DNA from: Neophaeotheca triangularis
Taxonomy: Eukaryota
DNA: 64,000 bases
Assembly (NCBI GenBank): GCA_054600435.1
Contig: BAAIJX010000017.1
Location: 310,001 to 374,000 of the forward strand
Direction: 5' to 3'
Below are positions 7,164-59,232 of this stretch, in pieces (position 1 is the first letter of the stretch; each line of letters starts with the position of its first letter). The notes under the pieces were generated by a model that saw nothing but the letters and a program-made list of their open reading frames with translations, did not search any database and had not been told where the DNA came from. The position numbers were made by a program, and so were the translations under genes.

Positions 7164-8612
7164 CTATCTCTTCATCCCATACGAGCCATCAACATCCTCC
7201 AAGTCATCCGAGTACACGCTCGCCACCGAGTCCTCATCCGACGAGCTCTCATCGTCCACAACCTTCAGACTATACTCTTGCGGTAAGCTCTTCAATCCCT
7301 TCCCATTTTTCGCCTCGGTCAAAACAACACCCCCTCCCTCAGCCCCCGCCCCCATCACCCCCTCCATCTCATCCCCATCCAATCCCAACTCCCTCTTCTG
7401 CTCCGCACTCAACTCAACAACCTGCGGCGCAAAATCCCCCGTCTCATTCTCCTCATCAAACCGCGTCGTCTCCATAAAAACTTGCTCCCCATCCTCCAAC
7501 TGCACCATCCCAGCGCGCAAATAGTCGCCGCCAAAACTCCACCCATGAGCGCCAGTAAGCCACTTCTCCAGCGCCTCCAGCTCCTCGCGCACATCCGCTA
7601 CCCCCTCGCCTTCGAGGTCTACAAGACCCTTGCGGAACCGCACTAGCAGGGACTTGAGCAGGGATTCGTTTTCGTCCGTCAGGTCGAAGAGGCCGGCTTC
7701 GGCGTCCGCGCAGTGGGAGAGTTGCAGTTTTAGCGAGCTGAGGATTTCGACGAAGAAGTCGGCGTTGCTTGCTACGGCGTTTTTGCAGGTGAGGAGGAGG
7801 GTGAGGAGGCGTTTCCATTGCTCGAGGCAGGACCAGTTGTTGAGGGTTAGTACGGCGAGGAAGGTGAATTGCAGTTCTCCTAGTATTTCATCCAGGACTG
7901 CGGTCTCGGTTTTTGCGGTTGTGGCTGGTGCGTGGGTTTGGAGTAGGGATTGCAGTGCCCAAGAACGGTCTTGAGCGGCTTCTGTGCGTTCGCGGCCTGT
8001 GGCGCCGATGGCCCAAGTTTGTTTGAGGTCGATTGGGAGGAAGGTGAGGGTTTTCTCCTCGGCGTTGAGAGGGTTCTCGGTTGTGGGGAGGCCGGGGATG
8101 TCGTCGAGGTCACGGGAGGCGCTGGAGGCGGAGGAGAGAGCGTAGTGGTTTTCCGAGCCGGAGGTGATGCGCGGGGCAACGAGGTGGACGTGGGTTGTGA
8201 GGGAGTTCCAGTCGTTGCTTTCTTCTTGGACTTCTCCGGGGGCGTCAGTGGGGTTTTTGGAGGTTTGGCGGTAGGGGGTCAGGTTGTTTTTCCACAGGCT
8301 GCCAATGTTGGCGCGCAGTCTGAGCGCCTCTGCTGATTGGGTGGTTGGTTGGAGATCACCAGTCTTCTCGTTCCAGTTCTTGATAACGATGTCCGGCCTG
8401 TCGTCTGACTTGGGCTCGTCGATGCGGAACCAAGCGCCATGGCGGAGTGAGAGGTAGGTGTCTGAGCCGATAAAGACAAAGTGATAGCCTGGTGGCAAGT
8501 TTTTGATACCTTGGAAGCGTGGCGTGGTAGTGAAGGAGAGAAGATCGATACCGGCCAGTGCGTCCTTGGGGAGGTTGAGGAGGAGAATGCTAGGTGTGGA
8601 CGCGGTGTCCAT
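7164..8612 (-). CDS. AAR2: U5 snRNP assembly factor Aar2 family protein
   Basis: GIDLLSFTTTPRFQGIKNLPPGYHFVF and LGELQFTFL..L.NWSCLEQWKRLL are typical of AAR2; acidic tail; ATG at 8612. Confidence 0.88.
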   Translation of the reverse strand: MDTASTPSILLLNLPKDALAGIDLLSFTTTPRFQGIKNLPPGYHFVFIGSDTYLSLRHGAWFRIDEPKSDDRPDIVIKNWNEKTGDLQPTTQSAEALRLRANIGSLWKNNLTPYRQTSKNPTDAPGEVQEESNDWNSLTTHVHLVAPRITSGSENHYALSSASSASRDLDDIPGLPTTENPLNAEEKTLTFLPIDLKQTWAIGATGRERTEAAQDRSWALQSLLQTHAPATTAKTETAVLDEILGELQFTFLAVLTLNNWSCLEQWKRLLTLLLTCKNAVASNADFFVEILSSLKLQLSHCADAEAGLFDLTDENESLLKSLLVRFRKGLVDLEGEGVADVREELEALEKWLTGAHGWSFGGDYLRAGMVQLEDGEQVFMETTRFDEENETGDFAPQVVELSAEQKRELGLDGDEMEGVMGAGAEGGGVVLTEAKNGKGLKSLPQEYSLKVVDDESSSDEDSVASVYSDDLEDVDGSYGMKR

Positions 8613-9013
8613 GATGGCGGCGAGCGTTTGATGTGTGGTGTTGTTGCTCTCGCAGAAGGGTGTTCCTTCGAAACCAGCAGGCACTTTAAAGTTGAGTTAT
8701 GCTGAAAATCTCAGAATGTTGCTTTCCTCCTGTAGGGCTTTTAGATACCTAGGTATGTTTCTGAAGGGTCGGGTGTCGAGATATAGCGCAGAGAAGTAAT
8801 TGCTGAAGATGACTTGCGTGAGGTGCTGTTCGCAACGAAAAGTGGGTCTTTTCTCCGGAGTCTCCTGAACTGAACCGTCTGTCTTTGCTGCCAGAGTATG
8901 TATACCTTATACCTAGGGTAGTATCTGACAACCTAACCTACATACTTAATTCCTGGTATGTATTTCACCCGTGCCTCTACACCTCTCAAATGTTTAAAGT
9001 GCCTTATGGACAG

Positions 9014-9643
9014 TTAAGTACCGCCCTCACTCCAGTAGTGACCCGGACATTTCCCTCCGTGGCACATGGTGTGCTTACAGTAGGTTTGCACGGGCAGTTC
9101 CCCAATCACCACCTGCACGCTGTAGGTCTCTCCTGCTCGGTACCTTAATGGCGAGCTAGTAGAGGGGCTCAAGATGGTCTTTGACGAGGTCACCGAGTTT
9201 TGGGTGCGCGTGTCGCACCATTCGCCGATGGGTGGAAGTGGGCGTGTGGGAAGGATTACGGTCAGTAACGATGTTTAGGTAGGAAGTTAGTTGTGTATTT
9301 CCTTGCGTTCCTCGTCTCCCGGCGGTCTATAGAAGTCACTTTCTGCGAACAACGGTCGTAGAGCCAGAAAATGCCTACAGTTGTAGAAGCGATTGAGGCA
9401 GGTAGCGTTACAAAGACGGTCGGATTGATAGGCTAGGAGAGAGACCTCCTCTCTCAACAGGGAGGCTTTTACTGAGAAATCTATCTCTTCGAGCTTAGTT
9501 TTATAATTAAGGCTTCTTAGTACTTCACGATAGCCTAGTCCTAACACTCATTAGATGATATTAGCTACTCGATATCTACCTATTTTGAACAAGAAGAAAA
9601 CACTGTCTTTAGTAATAATACGATGCTTACCCTAGAGGTCCAT
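9014..9643 (-). pseudogene. Probable RIP-damaged two-exon pseudogene of unknown family
   Basis: ATG GAC CTC TAG G, then a canonical-looking intron (GTAAGC..GCTAAT..TAG, 9541-9630), then a frame interrupted only by TAA stops (9287, 9275) that continues to 9014; TpA-rich. Confidence 0.4.
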
Positions 9644-9950
9644 TTCAGACCACTCTAAGCACCAGCGGATTATGCGGACAAGGGCAGCCGTAGGCGGCCC
9701 GGCTTGCCCGACTGCTTATAGGCAGCCGAGGCATCCGTTTTGGCTTTTTCTGCTTTAGGTAGGTAAGCCGAGGACGCTAGCGCCCCGCTTCGCAAAGCGG
9801 CGGAGCTTTAGAAATAATACAAGCTAGAAAATTACGAAAATATTCATAGAACACCCAAATAAATGCGAGAAAAAATTCTGAGTATAAAAAAGGATACTTG
9901 AAGGCATATTAGAGCATCTGTCGTGCTCAAAAACTGCAAAAATAAGAGAC

Positions 9951-10062
9951 TGGACTCACTGGGAATTGAACCCAGGACCATTCACAGACAGATCAGCAAT
10001 AGGCAGCAATGAGCCACCCTAAACTGTGCGAAGCGAATATCATACCCCTAGACCATAAGCCC
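9951..10062 (-). tRNA. tRNA-Ala(CGC) with 40-nt intron (9987-10026)
   Basis: Acceptor stem GGGCTTA/TGAGTCC with the G3:U70 Ala determinant, anticodon arm TTCGC-TT-CGC-A[intron]T-GTGAA, T arm CTGGG-TTCAATT-CCCAG, discriminator A, downstream TTTTT; 72-nt mature length. Confidence 0.93.
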
Positions 10063-10173
10063 ATTGTCATACCGAGACAGAGCTAACGCTGAATATATTC
10101 TGAACCAAAAATTTCCCAGAATTTTTCCGGCGCTAGGTCGCGCTTTCTTGGCTCAACCGTGGAATGAATTACC

Positions 10174-10256
10174 GGGGTATGATATTCACTTCGCACAGTT
10201 TAGGGTGGCTCATTGCTGCCTATTGCTGATCTGTCTGTGAATGGTCCTGGGTTCAA
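10174..10256 (+). pseudogene. Inverted partial copy (D-loop to T-loop, intron included) of the adjacent tRNA-Ala(CGC)
   Basis: 83 bp matching the reverse complement of 9966-10048 with one mismatch (10188); lacks both acceptor strands. Confidence 0.9.
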
Positions 10257-10292
10257 AAAAAAAGCTCGAGCAAGCTCGAGCTTTTTTTTTTT
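10255..10292 (+). other. Perfect hairpin A9-GCTCGAGC-AA-GCTCGAGC-T11 capping the tRNA fragment
   Basis: 17-bp perfect inverted repeat read directly; ends in a T-run resembling a Pol III terminator. Confidence 0.85.
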
Positions 10293-11024
10293 CCCGCTTT
10301 TTCTTCGATTTGTTATTCAGGGGTAGAGGAGGGGGTAGTTATTGTAGAGGGAGGGGGGTCCCGAACAGGCTCTCTTCCTCTTTTTCTCGCCCTCGGCTAT
10401 CAGGTCGTCTAATTCCCTCCTATCCGCCTCAGTCTGTCCGCCTCAATGTGAGTGTCCGTTCCGATCTAGTAGTAGTAGTGTCCCGAGGGATCAGCAGTCA
10501 ATGTTTGCCGGAGACGCTTTTGATCAACCTAATCGCCTCAAGTGTCCTTATCCCTTGGCAACGGATGACGAACCTAGGTGCTGTATAACAGCTGTCCATG
10601 GGAGTACAGTACCCTTACCATGTAGCGTCACAACTAGTAGAAGCGCGGTATATGCCAGGGATGAGAAGAGGTCGACTGTCTTCGGAAGCGCTTCCACGCG
10701 TTTGCTGACTCGAGCGACGTCTCACAACTCTTCATATCTTACCAACCCAAATACATTATCATCCAAGATACCCGCATGGTATGTAAGTACAGAGACACAT
10801 AGTATTATACACTCTGGATCGTCTCAAGAGGCAAAGATGAGCAGTTGACCGAGAACCTACCACCCAAACTCTGACCCTAAAAAGCCATCGAACGTGAGCA
10901 TCTCACACCACAACACCATCGATACACCACTAACATGAAACAGAAACAAGGACCGAAACAGGTCTCATAAACAACACAGCCCTAGCTAAAGACACCGGCG
11001 GCACCCAAGACACCCAGCCAAGCC

Positions 11025-11546
11025 ATGACAACCATCCGCCCCCGCGAGAACTCAGACCTGGACCCCTGCGCCACGCTCCTCGAACAAGTCCATGCCAGCG
11101 ACGGCTACCCAGTCGAAGGCGTCTCGGACGCGCGCAACTTCCTCGACGACCCCAAGACCCTCGCCGCCTGGGTTCTGACCGACCCTGCGGGAACCATAGT
11201 CGGCCACGTTTGCATCAACACCCCGACACTCGAGGACGCTTCCGTATCATTATGGCGGGAGAAACGCGGCTCCGACGACGACGCGGTTGCGGTTCTGGGG
11301 CGTTTGTTCTTGCACCCGACGGCTAGGGGGGCGGGGCGCGCGGAGGGTTTGGTGCGGGTTGCCGTTGCTTGGGCGCGGGAGAGGGGGTTGAGGTTGCTGC
11401 TTTTTGCTCTTGAGAGGATAGAGGCTCCTGTGAGGTTTTATGAGAGGATTGGTTGGGAGAATTACGGGATGGCGATGCATCGATGTGCTGATGGGAGTGA
11501 ATGGCCGGCGGTTTGTTTTACGTTGCCGGCTGTTGCGGAGGGGTAA
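11025..11546 (+). CDS. GNAT-family N-acetyltransferase (intronless, 173 aa)
   Basis: Motif A RLFLHPTARGAGRAEGLV and C-terminal PVRFYERIGW. Confidence 0.88.
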   Translation: MTTIRPRENSDLDPCATLLEQVHASDGYPVEGVSDARNFLDDPKTLAAWVLTDPAGTIVGHVCINTPTLEDASVSLWREKRGSDDDAVAVLGRLFLHPTARGAGRAEGLVRVAVAWARERGLRLLLFALERIEAPVRFYERIGWENYGMAMHRCADGSEWPAVCFTLPAVAEG

Positions 11547-11866
11547 CGGGGTTGGTGGCGAGGAGGAGGTGGGGTCTGAGATCAGCTGGAGTGTGGCGAG
11601 GGATCCGAATTGGTCTCTAGTGATGCTCGAGCCCGCCTAGTGTCCGGAACTGTGTCTTCGGCGGATTGGGGCAAGCAAGACAGCATTTGGGACATCCTGC
11701 TATTAATTGCTTTGTCTCAAGCAGCTGTCTCAAAGTCGGCACCCAAGGTAGCAGCTTCGCAGCATGCTGCTCGGGTATATATTCCACAGGCTGTCCGATG
11801 AGCAGAAGGGGGACCCAAATCAGATCGCACTATCTTGAACATAAAACAAGACAATCCTCAAAGCAA

Positions 11867-13347
11867 ATGGCAATCCAAACGAAGCGAGTTGCGGTCATCG
11901 GTGCCGGCCCTGGAGGCCTCGCAGCGACGAAGTAAGTATATGCCCCTTCAGTGGCCGCCCTGGCATCCTATCACTGACCATTCCAAGGTACCTCCTGGCC
12001 GAGGGCGCCTCAGTTACGCTGTTCGAGAAGAAGTCAAGCGCAGGCGGCGTGTGGCATCCAGAATACGAGAGCGATGGCCGCGTCAAAGGACCCATGTACG
12101 AGAGCCTCGAGACGAACGTCCCCCATACTCTCATGACTTTCAGCGACTTCTCCTACCCGGCCAACACACCGCTGTACCCAGGTCATCGCCTTGTCAAACA
12201 GTATCTGCAGAGCTATGCTGGATCCCTCACTGCTTGCGCAGTGGAGGGCACTGAACTTGTCATCAAGTACGACACGAGCGTCGTGGATGTGCGAGGCAAG
12301 TTGCGTGGAAGGGCGAAGAAGTGGCAGATCACGTCGACGAACAACCTTGTCAGAGCCCAGGGGAGCGGTGGCAACGTCGAGCTGTTTGACAATGTCGTTG
12401 TTGCAGTGGGCAACTACCATACCCCCATCTTCCCGACCGAACCCACCATTTCTCCCGAGTGGCTCGGGAACTGGATCATTCACTCTACGCACTACCCAGG
12501 CCCGGAGCCATTTGCCGGCAAGGTAAGTCCAGATGTCTTGCTCCAGGACCTAATACATTACTAACTCATGTCCAAGACTGTGGTCATCGTAGGAAACGGA
12601 CCAAGTGGGTGGGACATTTCGTCTCAGATCGCCGCAGTCGCAAAAACAACCATCGTCTCCAACAAGCGAATCGAGGCCGTCAGCTCCGACCGCATCGTCA
12701 GCGTAGGCACGGTCAAAGCATACGACTACGCCACCCGCTCCGTGTCGTTCCACCGAGGCCCCAAAGCCCGGCAAGTCGACATCATCGTCATCTGCACCGG
12801 CTACCAGTACGACTACACCTTCCTCAAAACCTCCTCAGGCAATGCTCTTATCCCCGCCGGTACCCAGGTCGTAGACCTCTTCCAGCACATGATCTACAAA
12901 CCCGAGCCCTCCTTGGCCTTCGTCGGCATCCCCAAAATGACCGCGTCCTTCGTCGTAGCCGAAGTGCAGAGCGCCTTCATCGCCCGCGTCTTCACCTCCA
13001 ACCAACCACTACCCCCCGACTCGGCCATGGCGAGCTACGTGTCCGCAAAATCGAAGGAATGGTCCCAGCGCATCGAGAAGTCGAAACTGCCGCCCAACCA
13101 GAAAATGCTACACAACCTGGGTCAAAACTTGGACCGTACTTACGTTCACACGCTCTATGAGATGGCCACGGAGCTCGGGGGCCGCAAGCAGCCACCACGC
13201 TGGTGCGCGAAGCTGGACACTGCTCGCGAGCTGAACAAGGCTGTTCGTCAGGAGTTCAAGGAGGCTGGTGAAGCAAGGTTCAAGATTACGTCGTTTGAGC
13301 AGCTCGGGAGGAGTTTGCCTGAGGAGTGCGATGCGACGGGGTTTTGA
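11867..13347 (+). CDS. Flavin-containing monooxygenase (FMO-like; introns 11932-11987 and 12523-12576)
   Basis: FAD motif VAVIGAGPGG, GGVW, MYESLETN, FMO-type IHSTHY, NADPH motif VVIVGNGPSG, CTGY; both introns restore the frame. Confidence 0.9.

Positions 13348-13813: not shown

Positions 13814-13814
<1 letters not shown>

Positions 13815-13850
<36 letters not shown>
13815..13850 (+). repeat. (ACT)12 microsatellite
   Basis: Read directly. Confidence 0.9.
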
Positions 13851-27926: not shown

Positions 27927-30900
27927 ATGCGTCCCGAAGTCGAGCAAGAGCTCGCCCACACCCTCCTAGTCGAACTCCTGGCATACCAATTCGCCTCGCC
28001 AGTCAGATGGATCGAGACTCAGGATGTGATCCTCGGCGAGAAGATCACCGAGCGCATTGTGGAAGTTGGACCGGCAGACACCCTAGGTGTCATGGCCAAG
28101 CGGACCTTGGCCTCCAAGTACGAAGCATATGACGCCGCGCGATCAGTCCAACGGCAGATCCTTTGCTACAACAAGGACGCCAAGGACATCTACTACGATG
28201 TCGACCCGATCGAAGAGGAGGTCGCCGCGCCGGCCCCTAGTGGTGAAGCTGCGCCTGCACAATCCGGTTCTGCTCCAGCGCCGGCTGCTGCCCCTGCTGC
28301 AGCAGCTGCCCCGGCACCTAGTGCGGGCCCAGCAGCAGCGGTGGAAGATGCACCCGTGGGTGCTGTAGATATCCTGAGGACCTTGGTTGCGCAGAAATTG
28401 AAGAAGCCGCTGACGGATGTCCCCTTGAGCAAGGCCATCAAGGACTTGGTTGGAGGTAAGTACGTCACACGCGCATGTCGAATGCGCAATGCAAGCTAAT
28501 CGCTTTCCAGGCAAATCTACGCTGCAAAACGAAATCCTCGGAGACCTTGGAAAAGAGTTTGGGTCCACACCAGAGAAGCCGGAAGACACACCTTTGGACG
28601 AGCTAGGAGCTTCGATGCAGGCTACCTTCAACGGCCAGCTCGGAAAGCAGTCGTCCTCCCTGATTGCACGTATGGTCTCATCGAAAATGCCTGGTGGCTT
28701 CAACATGTCAGCCGTTCGCAAGCATCTGGAAACAAGATGGGGACTGGGCCCCGGCAGGCAAGATGGCGTGTTACTCCTTGGTCTTACTATGGAACCAGCT
28801 GCACGTTTGGGATCCGAGAACGACGGAAAGGCATGGCTAGACGACACGGCGCAAAAGTACGCCTCAAATGCAGGCATCAGCCTTTCCACAGGCCCGGCAG
28901 CAGGAGAAGGCGGTGCCGGCGGCGGTGGTATGATGATGGATCCAGCCGCTCTCGACGCACTCACCAAGGACCAAAGACAGCTCTTCAAGCAGCAACTCGA
29001 GCTGTTTGCTCGCTACCTCAAGATGGATCTACGAGCTGGAGACAAGGCCGCCTTCGCCGGAAAGAAGAATGAAACCGCTCTGCAAGCTCAACTCGACCTT
29101 TGGAACACTGAGCACGGTGAATTCTACGCCGCTGGCATCGAGCCATCTTTCAGCCCGCTCAAAGCACGCGTTTACGATTCTTCCTGGAACTGGGCTCGCC
29201 AGGACGCCCTCACCATGTACTACGACATAATTTTTGGCCGACTGAAGGCTATTGACCGAGAAATCGTCAGCCGTTGCATCCTCATCATGAACCGCGCAAA
29301 CCCTCTGCTGCTTGACTTTATGCAGTACCATATCGATCACTGCCCTACTGAGCGTGGAGAGACTTACCAACTCGCCAAGATGCTGGGAGAGCAACTCATT
29401 GATAACTGTAGGGACGTGCTCGATGAATCTCCCGTCTACAAGGATGTCGGCCTCCCAACCGCACCATCTGTCACCCTCGACGCTCGTGGAAACATGGACT
29501 ACGAGGAGGTCCCACGTACGAGCGTCCGCAAGCTCGAGCATTACGTGCGCGAGATGGCAGAAGGCGGCAAGATCTCCGAGTATGGCAACCGTACCAAGGT
29601 GCAGAATGACCTGCAGAGTGTCTACAAGCTTATTCGCAAGCAACACAAGCTTTCCAAGTCATCGCAGCTGCAGATTAAGCAACTTTACAGCAACATCGTG
29701 CGATCGCTGTCAATGAACGAGGGTCAGATTATGCCTTCTGAAAACGGAAATGCCAAGAAGGGTCGTGCCGGCCCCAGGGTGAATGGACAGATCAAGCAAG
29801 GCAAGGTCGAGACTGTACCTTTCCTGCACTTGAAGCGCAAGGAAGAGCATGGCTGGGAATACAGCAAGAAGCTCACCGGCATCTACCTTGATGGCTTAGA
29901 GCAAGCTGCCAGAGCCGGTGTGACCTTCCAGGGCAAGAACGCTTTGATGACTGGTGCTGGCGCCGGATCCATCGGTGCCGAGGTGCTCCAAGGTCTCATC
30001 TCCGGCGGTGCCAAGGTGGTTGTCACTACTTCGCGCTTCTCGCGGCAGGTCACCGAGTACTACCAGAGCATGTACGCCCGCTACGGTGCTCGTGGCTCTC
30101 AACTTGTCGTCGTGCCTTTCAACCAAGGGTCTCAACAAGACGTACAGGCCTTGATCGACTACATTTACGACGACAAGAATGGTCTTGGATGGGATCTCGA
30201 TTACATTGTCCCATTCGCCGCCATCCCGGAAAATGGCCGCGAGATCGACAACATTGATAGCAAGTCAGAGCTCGCTCACCGTATTATGCTTACCAATGTG
30301 CTGCGCATGCTTGGCGCCGTCAAGGCACAAAAGTTCGAGCGTGGCTTCGAGACACGTCCAGCCCAAGTTATACTCCCTCTCTCACCGAACCATGGCACTT
30401 TCGGCAACGATGGTCTCTATGCGGAATCGAAGCTGGCTCTCGAGACTTTGTTCAACAGGTGGCACTCCGAAAGCTGGGGCAACTTCCTCACTATCTGCGG
30501 TGCTGTCATTGGCTGGACTCGTGGAACTGGTCTCATGGGCGGCAACAACATTGTCGCCGAGGGCGTGGAGAAGTATGGTGTCCGCACCTTCTCCCAGCAA
30601 GAAATGGCCTTCAACCTTCTCGGCCTCATGGCTCCGTCGATTGTCAACCTGTGCCAACAGGAGCCTGTCTTCGCCGACTTGAACGGTGGTCTTCAGTTCC
30701 TGCCAAACCTCAAGGACCTCATGACTAAGTTGCGCAAGGACATTACCGAGACAGCCGAGATCCGCAAGGCCGTTAGCAGGGAGAATGCAGTCGAAAACAA
30801 GATCGTCAATGGCGAAGAAAGCGAGGCGCTCTACAAGACTGTCAAGGTTGATAAGCGCGCCAACTTGAAGTTCGACTTCCCCAAGCTGCCTGACTGGAAG

Positions 30901-33612: not shown

Positions 33613-34257
33613 GAAGTGGCGAATTTGGTTGGATGGTGGAGTCTTGTAAATTTATTATTCGTGTAGTGTACAGTGGCGCGAAGTGCTTTTTGCTCTATGC
33701 TTTGAAGCTTCTAGTGGATGACCACTCGCTTTTGGGTGTAATTGCGAGGGTTTTCTTTTGCTGGGCTGGAGATAGAGCTCTTCTATACGCTTTGTAGTTG
33801 TTTCCGCTGTTCAAGAGTAGTTTTTTTTTTTTTTTTGCCTCTGTGCTGTCTGTGAGTGTGCTAACGACAAGGGGTTACCTTGCACCGTGAATAGAAGGCC
33901 TCGCTGTCATAGTCGTTAAAGAGCTTCTTAACACTGCGAGTGAGGTTTCTTTGGCTGTTGCCGCGGTTTCTGCTTCGATCTCCAGGTAGGCTTCAGTACT
34001 CGAAATTACTTCTTGTCAATTCTCAGTAGAAATGGGCCGACGCCGCCTGACTGGGTTTAATTCCCAGTCGGATCAAAATGCGACGATTCAGCCCAGCATT
34101 AGCTGCTGCAGAGATAAGCCAATCATCAGCGAGCCGCAGTTTTACCTGTGCGGCGGCCAGACTTCACCTCCGTGAATATAGTGTAGACACCACCCACTAT
34201 CAACCTTACAGTTCTTCAGTCACTCACTCCGACGCTGAAAGGAACAAATAAAACACA

Positions 34258-58481: not shown

Positions 58482-59232
58482 GACGGTCACCCAAGCATAC
58501 CCAGCGACGGATTTCTGTCCTAACGCCCCGCTAAAACTTCTACCTATTCTTTCCCTCCCTTCCTAGATAACGATGTTTTAATACGACGGCAACCTTAAGA
58601 TGCGACGGGGCCTTATAATGCGACGGGGCCTCATAATGCGACGGGGCCTCATAATACGACGGGGCAAGATGCGACGGGGCAAGATACGACGGGGCAAGAT
58701 ACGACGGGGCAAGATGCGACGGGGCAAGATGCGATAGGGCTTCATAATGCGACGGGGCCTTATAATGCGATAGGGCCTCATAATACGACGGGGCAAGATG
58801 CGACGGGGCAAGGTACGACGGGGCAAGTTGCGACGGGGCAAGATACGACGGAGTAAGATGCGACGGGGCAAGATGCGACGGGGCCTCATAATGCGACGGG
58901 GCCTCATAATGCGACGGGGCCTCATAATGCGACGGGGCCTCATAATGCGACGGGGCCTTATAATGCGACGGGGCCAGATGCGACGGGGCCTTATAATGCG
59001 ACGGGGCCTCATAATGTGACAGGGCCTTATAATGCAACGGGGCAAGATGCGACGAGGCCTCATAATGCGATAGGGCCTTATAATGCGATAGGGCCTCATA
59101 ATGCGACGGGGCAAGATACGACGTATATAGCGAGGTACATATAATTATCTTAAGACTAGGAAAGTGAAAGGTAAAAGTTCAAGTAGGGCGTTGGGACAGA
59201 AATCCGTCGCTGGGTATGCTTGGGTGACCGTC
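58482..59232. mobile_element. Non-autonomous TIR element (MITE/foldback-like), 751 bp
   Basis: 47-bp TIRs at 58482-58528 and 59186-59232 (1 mismatch), flanked by GTGT at 58478-58481 and 59233-59236. Confidence 0.85.
58600..59123 (+). repeat. Minisatellite of about 31 units: ATGCGACGGGGC followed by CTCATA (18 bp) or AAG (15 bp)
   Basis: Units counted directly; forms the interior of the TIR element. Confidence 0.95.

Follow-up and report, generated by a model that had tools for sequence, protein, structure and literature searches.

An inverted, intron-bearing partial copy of a tRNA-Ala(CGC) gene flush against a perfect palindrome: a probable foldback or template-switch scar in a fungal genome

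In Saccharomyces cerevisiae, local foldback inversions of 10 to over 150 bp, formed with a 41-nt loop, have been described at an HO break (PMC11724301). According to that report, the resected 3′ end folds back, is primed by a short inverted microhomology and gains 10 to over 150 nt, and at the far junction the new strand is displaced and joined with 0–5 bp of microhomology, the median being 2 (PMC11724301). The inversions depend on Pol delta and on end joining, and most of the inserts are 5–34 bp in size (PMC11724301). In fission yeast, tRNA genes are reported to stall replication forks and to raise template-switch recombination (PMC6358216). A tRNA-linked small RNA is described in Neurospora crassa, where milR-4 shares a transcript with the two same-direction tRNA-Ala genes on either side of it, from which RNase Z releases it (PMC3547838).

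Here we analysed a stretch of fungal DNA of 64,000 nucleotides, the whole of which is called the window below. It carries an apparently intact tRNA-Ala(CGC) gene and, upstream of it, an inverted partial copy of the same gene which retains the intron and runs directly into a perfect palindrome. The features of the locus and its neighbours are as follows.

7164–8696, minus strand: AAR2 splicing factor, a 510-codon frame (Pfam PF05282 and PF20981)
9929–9942, minus strand: two T5 runs, 9 and 18 nt past the 3′ end of the tRNA, read from the sequence
9951–10062, minus strand: tRNA-Ala(CGC) gene, apparently intact (Rfam RF00005 and ARAGORN with introns allowed)
9966–10048, minus strand: source arm, tRNA G15 to A58 with the whole intron (repeat search, blastn)
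10063–10173, no strand: unique 5′ flank of the tRNA gene, 111 bp (sequence)
10091–10100, at −29 to −38 of the tRNA: palindromic TATA-like 10-mer GAATATATTC, self-complementary
10174–10256, plus strand: inverted partial copy, 82/83 identical (repeat search, blastn)
10255–10292, no strand: A9-GCTCGAGC-AA-GCTCGAGC-T11 hairpin or palindrome with a 17-bp perfect stem and a 2-nt centre
10986–11546, plus strand: GNAT acetyltransferase frame, the neighbour at the right

The tRNA gene and its copy are located within a 2.3-kb divergent intergenic region. The best named relative of the AAR2 protein is from Zasmidium cellare (55% identical), and another among the best 120 relatives is 75% identical. Every named genus among these 120 is, we presume, a Dothideomycete, and Neurospora is absent among them; judged from the protein sequence, the host appears to belong to a sparsely sampled Dothideomycete lineage. 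The contigs derived from sequencing reads total ∼33 Mb. Besides GNAT, a flavin monooxygenase and a frame with no assignment are found to the right of the locus. Short TAG/CTA trinucleotide repeats occur at 10467–10480 and 13814–13850 and again near 26.9 kb, and are ordinary microsatellites. At 58482–59232, between two long open frames, there is an element of ∼750 bp with 75-nt terminal inverted repeats (85% complementary) enclosing a long array made of two variants of a ∼15–19-bp tandem unit; its appearance is that of a foldback or MITE-like transposon.

The tRNA gene scored 44 bits against the Rfam model RF00005, passing the gathering threshold of 29 for the cloverleaf, and it is the sole Rfam tRNA across the whole window. 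ARAGORN reported no tRNA gene in its default bacterial mode and one gene with introns allowed. In the latter prediction a 40-nt intron lies at 9986–10025, beside the anticodon CGC, the acceptor stem contains the pair G3:U70, and G30.U40 is the fourth pair of the anticodon stem. RNA polymerase III terminates at T runs, and the two T5 runs on the minus strand would be the expected terminators of the gene. The TATA-like element GAATATATTC appears, from its distance to the gene, to occupy the usual position of the TFIIIB site. The 5′ flank at 10063–10173 had no similarity elsewhere within the window by blastn. A B-box pattern matched three times in the window against 1.21 matches expected, a count that 10 of 100 shuffled sequences also reached; the two additional sites were considered as tRNA genes and rejected, with no tRNA call at either.

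The repeat search identified inverted arms at 9966–10048 and 10174–10256 (83 nt, 99% complementary, 125 nt apart). When positions 9700–10500 were compared with the window by blastn, the same pair was recovered with 98.8% identity over 83 nt (E 2.6e-40), and otherwise there were just trivial matches of 11–18 nt and no second copy of the fragment. One site of 18 nt with a 94% match, at 34051–34068, was considered as a tRNA remnant and turned out to be a small local hairpin. In tRNA numbering, the copy runs from G15, in the G run of the D loop, to A58 of GGGTTCAA in the T loop, and the intron copy is located at 10197–10236. The 125-nt loop between the arms consists of the 111-bp 5′ flank and tRNA positions 1–14 (10049–10062). 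The arms differ at a single position (10034 c vs 10188 a), which corresponds to a change of G30 to A and converts the G.U pair of the anticodon stem into A:U. The difference is a CpG transition; one change is too little to show whether repeat-induced point mutation (RIP) was its origin in this 83-bp repeat.

The copy is not a tRNA by any model. Positions 1–14 and 59–73 are missing, so that it has no acceptor stem and neither a complete D arm nor a complete T arm. The copy was not found as a tRNA by Rfam on the plus strand at E≤1, and ARAGORN -i reported 1 gene only. Against the box consensus, the A box has lost positions 8–14 and survives from 15 on only, and the B box keeps 7 of its 11 positions, the last four being replaced by A's. 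The initial annotation, made from the sequence alone, had described a D-loop-to-T-loop copy identical at 82 of 83 positions across a 125-bp spacer, with the 40-nt intron, one G:U to A:U substitution in the anticodon stem and damaged A and B boxes; the repeat search, blastn and ARAGORN bear out this geometry, and the substitution and the box damage are as it stated.

A false inverted segment made by chimeric or foldback reads was one way in which the arrangement might have arisen, and the same annotation had named an assembly artefact as a refuting case. Three public sequencing runs are listed, and the locus was present in one of them (share 0.98), which is possibly the source data of the assembly and thus non-independent. 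In this run four read-derived contigs covered the region: 8500–9995 (depth 133), 10004–10218 (80.6), 10189–10256 (147.5) and 10227–11800 (124). Their ends at 9995, 10004, 10218, 10227 and 10256 are those that a k=31 graph predicts for a true inverted repeat with arms differing at 10034 and 10188. This pattern of breaks makes an artefact of scaffolding unlikely. Furthermore, the 215-nt contig 10004–10218, at ∼80x, runs in one path from the G-variant arm across the spacer into the A-variant arm. The depth of the shared arm is 1.83 times that of the middle (147.5/80.6; 2 expected), and no branch for an allele lacking the copy was found among the read-derived contigs. At the junction 10256/10257 the contig has 30 arm-side letters, one below the 31-letter bridging rule, which is inherent to the graph. 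The spacer contig is shallower (80.6) than its flanks (133 and 124), and this, like the possible identity of the run with the assembly's own data, would fit an artefact; our guess is that foldback-prone DNA was under-sequenced. Of the two other runs, one had no contigs of the locus and the other had one tRNA-like match of 38 nt with 5 differences when 8500–11800 was compared at 80% likeness. With one contig crossing from arm through spacer to arm and carrying both sequence variants, we regard an artefact as extremely improbable.

Past the borders of the arms the similarity fell to 8/40 and 10/40 matches, as between random sequences, so the 83 nt do not represent the best-preserved part of a longer, decayed duplication. 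In fungi, identical tRNA genes can stand as divergent pairs, and the copy keeps exact register with the parent gene along its whole length; both facts would suit the remnant of a complete head-to-head tRNA-Ala duplicate whose ends, positions 1–14 and 59–73, were lost later, either in two independent deletions or when the palindrome was inserted. Such a history calls for a duplication and a flush truncation on either side, three events in all while only one of the 83 nt was substituted, and nothing of the tRNA ends, or of the leader or trailer of the parent, can be recognised in the random flanks. We consider a decayed duplicate unlikely.

At its distal end the copy is flush against the hairpin. 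The copy ends in TTCAA and runs into the A run of the hairpin, with 2 nt (AA) in common, so that the first two A's of the A9 run belong to both. The hairpin arms, 10255–10271 and 10274–10290, are 17 nt long, 100% complementary and 2 nt apart by the repeat search, and the A9/T11 perfect hairpin abutting the copy that was first noticed by eye is confirmed at 10255–10292. The A run mirrors the T run base for base within the perfect palindrome. A tandem 10-nt unit, AAGCTCGAGC, occurs twice in the hairpin, and GCTCGAGC is itself palindromic. The hairpin has a DNA folding energy of −17.4 kcal/mol (z −4.25), and no other perfect hairpin in the 64 kb has a stem of at least 10 and a loop of at most 8; the longest stem was ≤11 in 20/20 first-order Markov controls. 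Its uniqueness in the window together with these controls excludes chance for the hairpin, and likewise for the inverted repeat.

No second copy of the hairpin was present within the window. Its 10-mer, allowing ≤1 mismatch, gave 15 matches against 6.5 expected, mostly self-overlaps or double counts of the palindrome, with one exact unrelated site at 29530. Among JGI metagenome contigs, the 26-nt hairpin core had one exact match (contig L001, 1001–1026), a terminator-like hairpin 15 nt past the stop codon of a 276-codon ORF; the contig looks bacterial, and the locus belongs to no Rfam family and has flanks unrelated to those found here. We read this identity as a probable convergence on a simple design of A run, GC palindrome and T run, and not as homology. 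The same simple design accounts for sub-threshold Rfam matches to bacterial leaders: of the 7 matches at E≤1 over 8000–12500, 6 were far below gathering and all 6 fell on the hairpin. These, parts of bacterial leader and sRNA terminators, were discarded as meaningless for a fungus, and scans for bacterial-type promoters and terminators were likewise uninformative for fungal DNA.

We think it probable that the copy arose by a single, young foldback or template-switch insertion at the DNA level and that it is most likely functionless. One difference in 83 nt suggests that the event is young. The retained 40-nt intron points to a DNA-level or pre-tRNA-templated event, an argument of the initial annotation that stands. 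The locus shows what foldback inversions show, namely an inverted copy of adjacent DNA, sharp borders and a capture microhomology of 0–5 bp. Four origins had been put forward at the outset: the scar of a tRNA-targeting insertion, a template switch at a Pol III replication barrier, a nascent SINE-like head and a source of long dsRNA. The template switch fits best, given the sharp borders, the inversion 125 bp away and the AA microhomology, and the other three find no support, as set out below.

Palindromes are known break sites. In the sequence of events that we favour, a break would have occurred at the left edge of the A9-GCTCGAGC-AA-GCTCGAGC-T11 palindrome, which is of a break-prone sequence type. 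If the palindrome caused the break, this would also account for two rare structures standing together, the copy lying flush with the sole long perfect hairpin. The resected 3′ end of the plus strand, in the G run at about 10174–10177, would then fold onto the C run of the D loop at 10045–10048 on the same strand, leaving a loop of 125 nt. DNA polymerase would copy ∼79 nt of the tRNA gene, with its intron, leftwards to 9966, and the new end (...TTCAA) would come free and be captured at the other break end by the A run there, with a microhomology of 2 nt (AA). A fork version, with the nascent strand switching template near the tRNA gene as a fork barrier, would be equally compatible.

Towards the loop the arms end in GGGG/CCCC, a plausible candidate for a pre-existing priming microhomology; these bases are inseparable from the copied sequence, and without them the first junction has 0 nt of homology. 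Under the foldback reading, the inversion, the retained intron, the abrupt borders, the short distance between source and copy and the contact with the palindrome are all accounted for. That reading offers no reason for the halt of synthesis in the T loop and no origin for the palindrome, which, with its tandem 10-nt unit, could be a product of the same event or of another.

The intron, the A run directly after the 3′ end of the copy and a start that looks 5′-truncated also invite a retrocopy, in which a truncated, polyadenylated fragment of unspliced pre-tRNA-Ala, for example a substrate of nuclear surveillance, was reverse-transcribed and the start in the D loop was produced by 5′ truncation. 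The copy has neither an unencoded poly(A) tail nor a target-site duplication, the two marks of a retropseudogene. The apparent tail is a palindrome arm; since the A run is symmetric with the T run, no poly(A) tail is required, and no direct repeat or target-site duplication was found when the flanks of the unit were read directly. Landing 125 bp from its own source in a genome of ∼33 Mb would be a large coincidence, and no reverse-transcriptase element was seen nearby. A retrocopy is very unlikely.

SINE heads have working A and B boxes, many dispersed copies and target-site duplications. At integration (att) sites in bacteria and archaea, tRNA copies reproduce the gene end, for the most part in the same orientation as the gene, and flank an inserted element. 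A tRNA-derived sequence adjoining an A run, in a window which contains one foldback or MITE-like element elsewhere (58482–59232), could suggest a MITE, the beginnings of a SINE-like head or the trace left by a tRNA-targeting element. Neither box of the copy is intact, so the internal promoter is broken; the window holds 0 further copies of the fragment, the hairpin also being single in the 64 kb, and the unit shows no terminal repeats and no duplication at its borders. The damaged boxes speak against the proposal of a SINE head. Integration scars are direct copies of the gene end, whereas here the copy is an inverted internal segment (15–58), and between the arms we found the gene's own 5′ flank and first 14 positions, so the integration scar is not supported either. 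In the JGI metagenome contigs, the one exact match to the hairpin follows an ORF and is a bacterial terminator. Taken with these observations, an origin from a mobile element is highly improbable.

A functional RNA remains to be considered, in two forms. A transcript of both arms might act as 83-bp dsRNA that yields small RNAs against pre-tRNA-Ala, or the symmetric TATA-like element at 10091–10100, the copy, the hairpin and the T11 terminator might form a divergent Pol III unit making an RNA of tRNA fragment plus hairpin. The whole region as a single strand folds at −128.8 kcal/mol (z −22), and the copy with the hairpin folds as RNA at −50 kcal/mol (z −5.6). On each strand the hairpin is followed by a T run, and the TATA-like element is perfectly palindromic. 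In N. crassa, milR-4 is described as derived from a Pol III transcript with two tRNA-Ala genes in an RNase Z-dependent manner (PMC3547838). Against this, AAR2 (minus), GNAT (plus) and the tRNA gene are all transcribed away from the copy, and no transcript is predicted over both arms, which speaks against the long dsRNA and small-RNA role suggested earlier. The copy has no A box and a truncated B box, and the 17-bp hairpin is below the typical length of small-RNA precursors. The layout is unlike that of milR-4 and the host is a Dothideomycete, so the appeal of the initial annotation to Neurospora does not transfer directly and serves as analogy only. On balance the chance of an RNA device is very slight.

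The symmetry of GAATATATTC is the basis for a more speculative version, to which we give an even slighter chance. The palindromic element might direct TFIIIB and Pol III in both directions, in which case Pol III would also proceed rightwards through the intron-bearing fragment and the hairpin and stop in T11, making an RNA of ∼160 nt; alternatively, a rare read-through transcript across both arms might supply 83-bp dsRNA, matching unspliced pre-tRNA-Ala, to RNAi. If the bidirectional reading were true, the locus would be a newborn tRNA-linked small-RNA gene in a Dothideomycete.

Returning to the foldback or template-switch insertion, we take the copy to be presumably unique, young, neutral and silent. 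The structure is a real and legible structural scar of a known kind, which deserves a line of annotation and is not a new system. If our explanation is right, a filamentous fungus here preserves a natural record of foldback-primed templated repair or of template switching, in which the source, the loop, both junctions and the likely break-prone palindrome can all still be read. Within 350 bp the locus brings together a tRNA gene, a perfect palindrome and an inverted repeat, each of them a known source of fragility. In our literature search, no published case emerged of a partial tRNA copy that is inverted and keeps its intron in the nuclear genome of a fungus, which is no proof that such cases are absent from print. 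The locus serves as an illustration and as a caution for the annotation of tRNAs and repeats and opens no new question; it would gain greater weight only if the arrangement recurred at other tRNA genes or made RNA.

Compared with described systems, the hairpin is identical over its 26-nt core to one at the textbook position of a bacterial intrinsic terminator in L001, but the host here is a fungus and the flanks have nothing in common. Like tRNA-derived SINEs, the copy is a tRNA-derived sequence followed by an A run; unlike them, it has no A box, 7/11 of the B box, a single occurrence in the window and no duplication. With att-site copies it shares a partial tRNA copy beside the gene, and it differs from them in that the copied segment is internal and inverted, the gene is eukaryotic and contains an intron, and no DNA has been inserted between the two. 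Like milR-4 of N. crassa as reported (PMC3547838), the locus has a fungal alanine tRNA gene beside a hairpin-forming sequence; unlike milR-4, the copy is upstream of and divergent from the tRNA gene, and no shared transcript is predicted.

The resemblance to fork template switching lies in the tRNA gene as a fork obstacle, as reported for fission yeast (PMC6358216). Inverted duplications of the foldback or ODIRA type are likewise described as starting at short inverted repeats, with priming on the same strand or its sister (PMC10622511, PMC10766186). The duplications in these reports are of chromosome scale and centred on a short inverted repeat (PMC10622511, PMC10766186), whereas here only 83 bp were copied; the centre of symmetry of the arms is near 10111, and the small palindrome is not that centre.

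The local foldback inversions of S. cerevisiae, as far as PMC11724301 describes them, are alike in that adjacent DNA is inverted, the 83-bp insert is in their range, although at its long end, the loop is 125 nt against 41 nt and the far junction carries AA; their reported mechanism likewise has no RNA intermediate. The yeast events in that report were induced in the laboratory at an HO cut, whereas the present one is a fixed natural event whose break we infer. It further differs from them in that the host is a filamentous Dothideomycete, a palindrome adjoins the copy and a tRNA gene served as the putative template.
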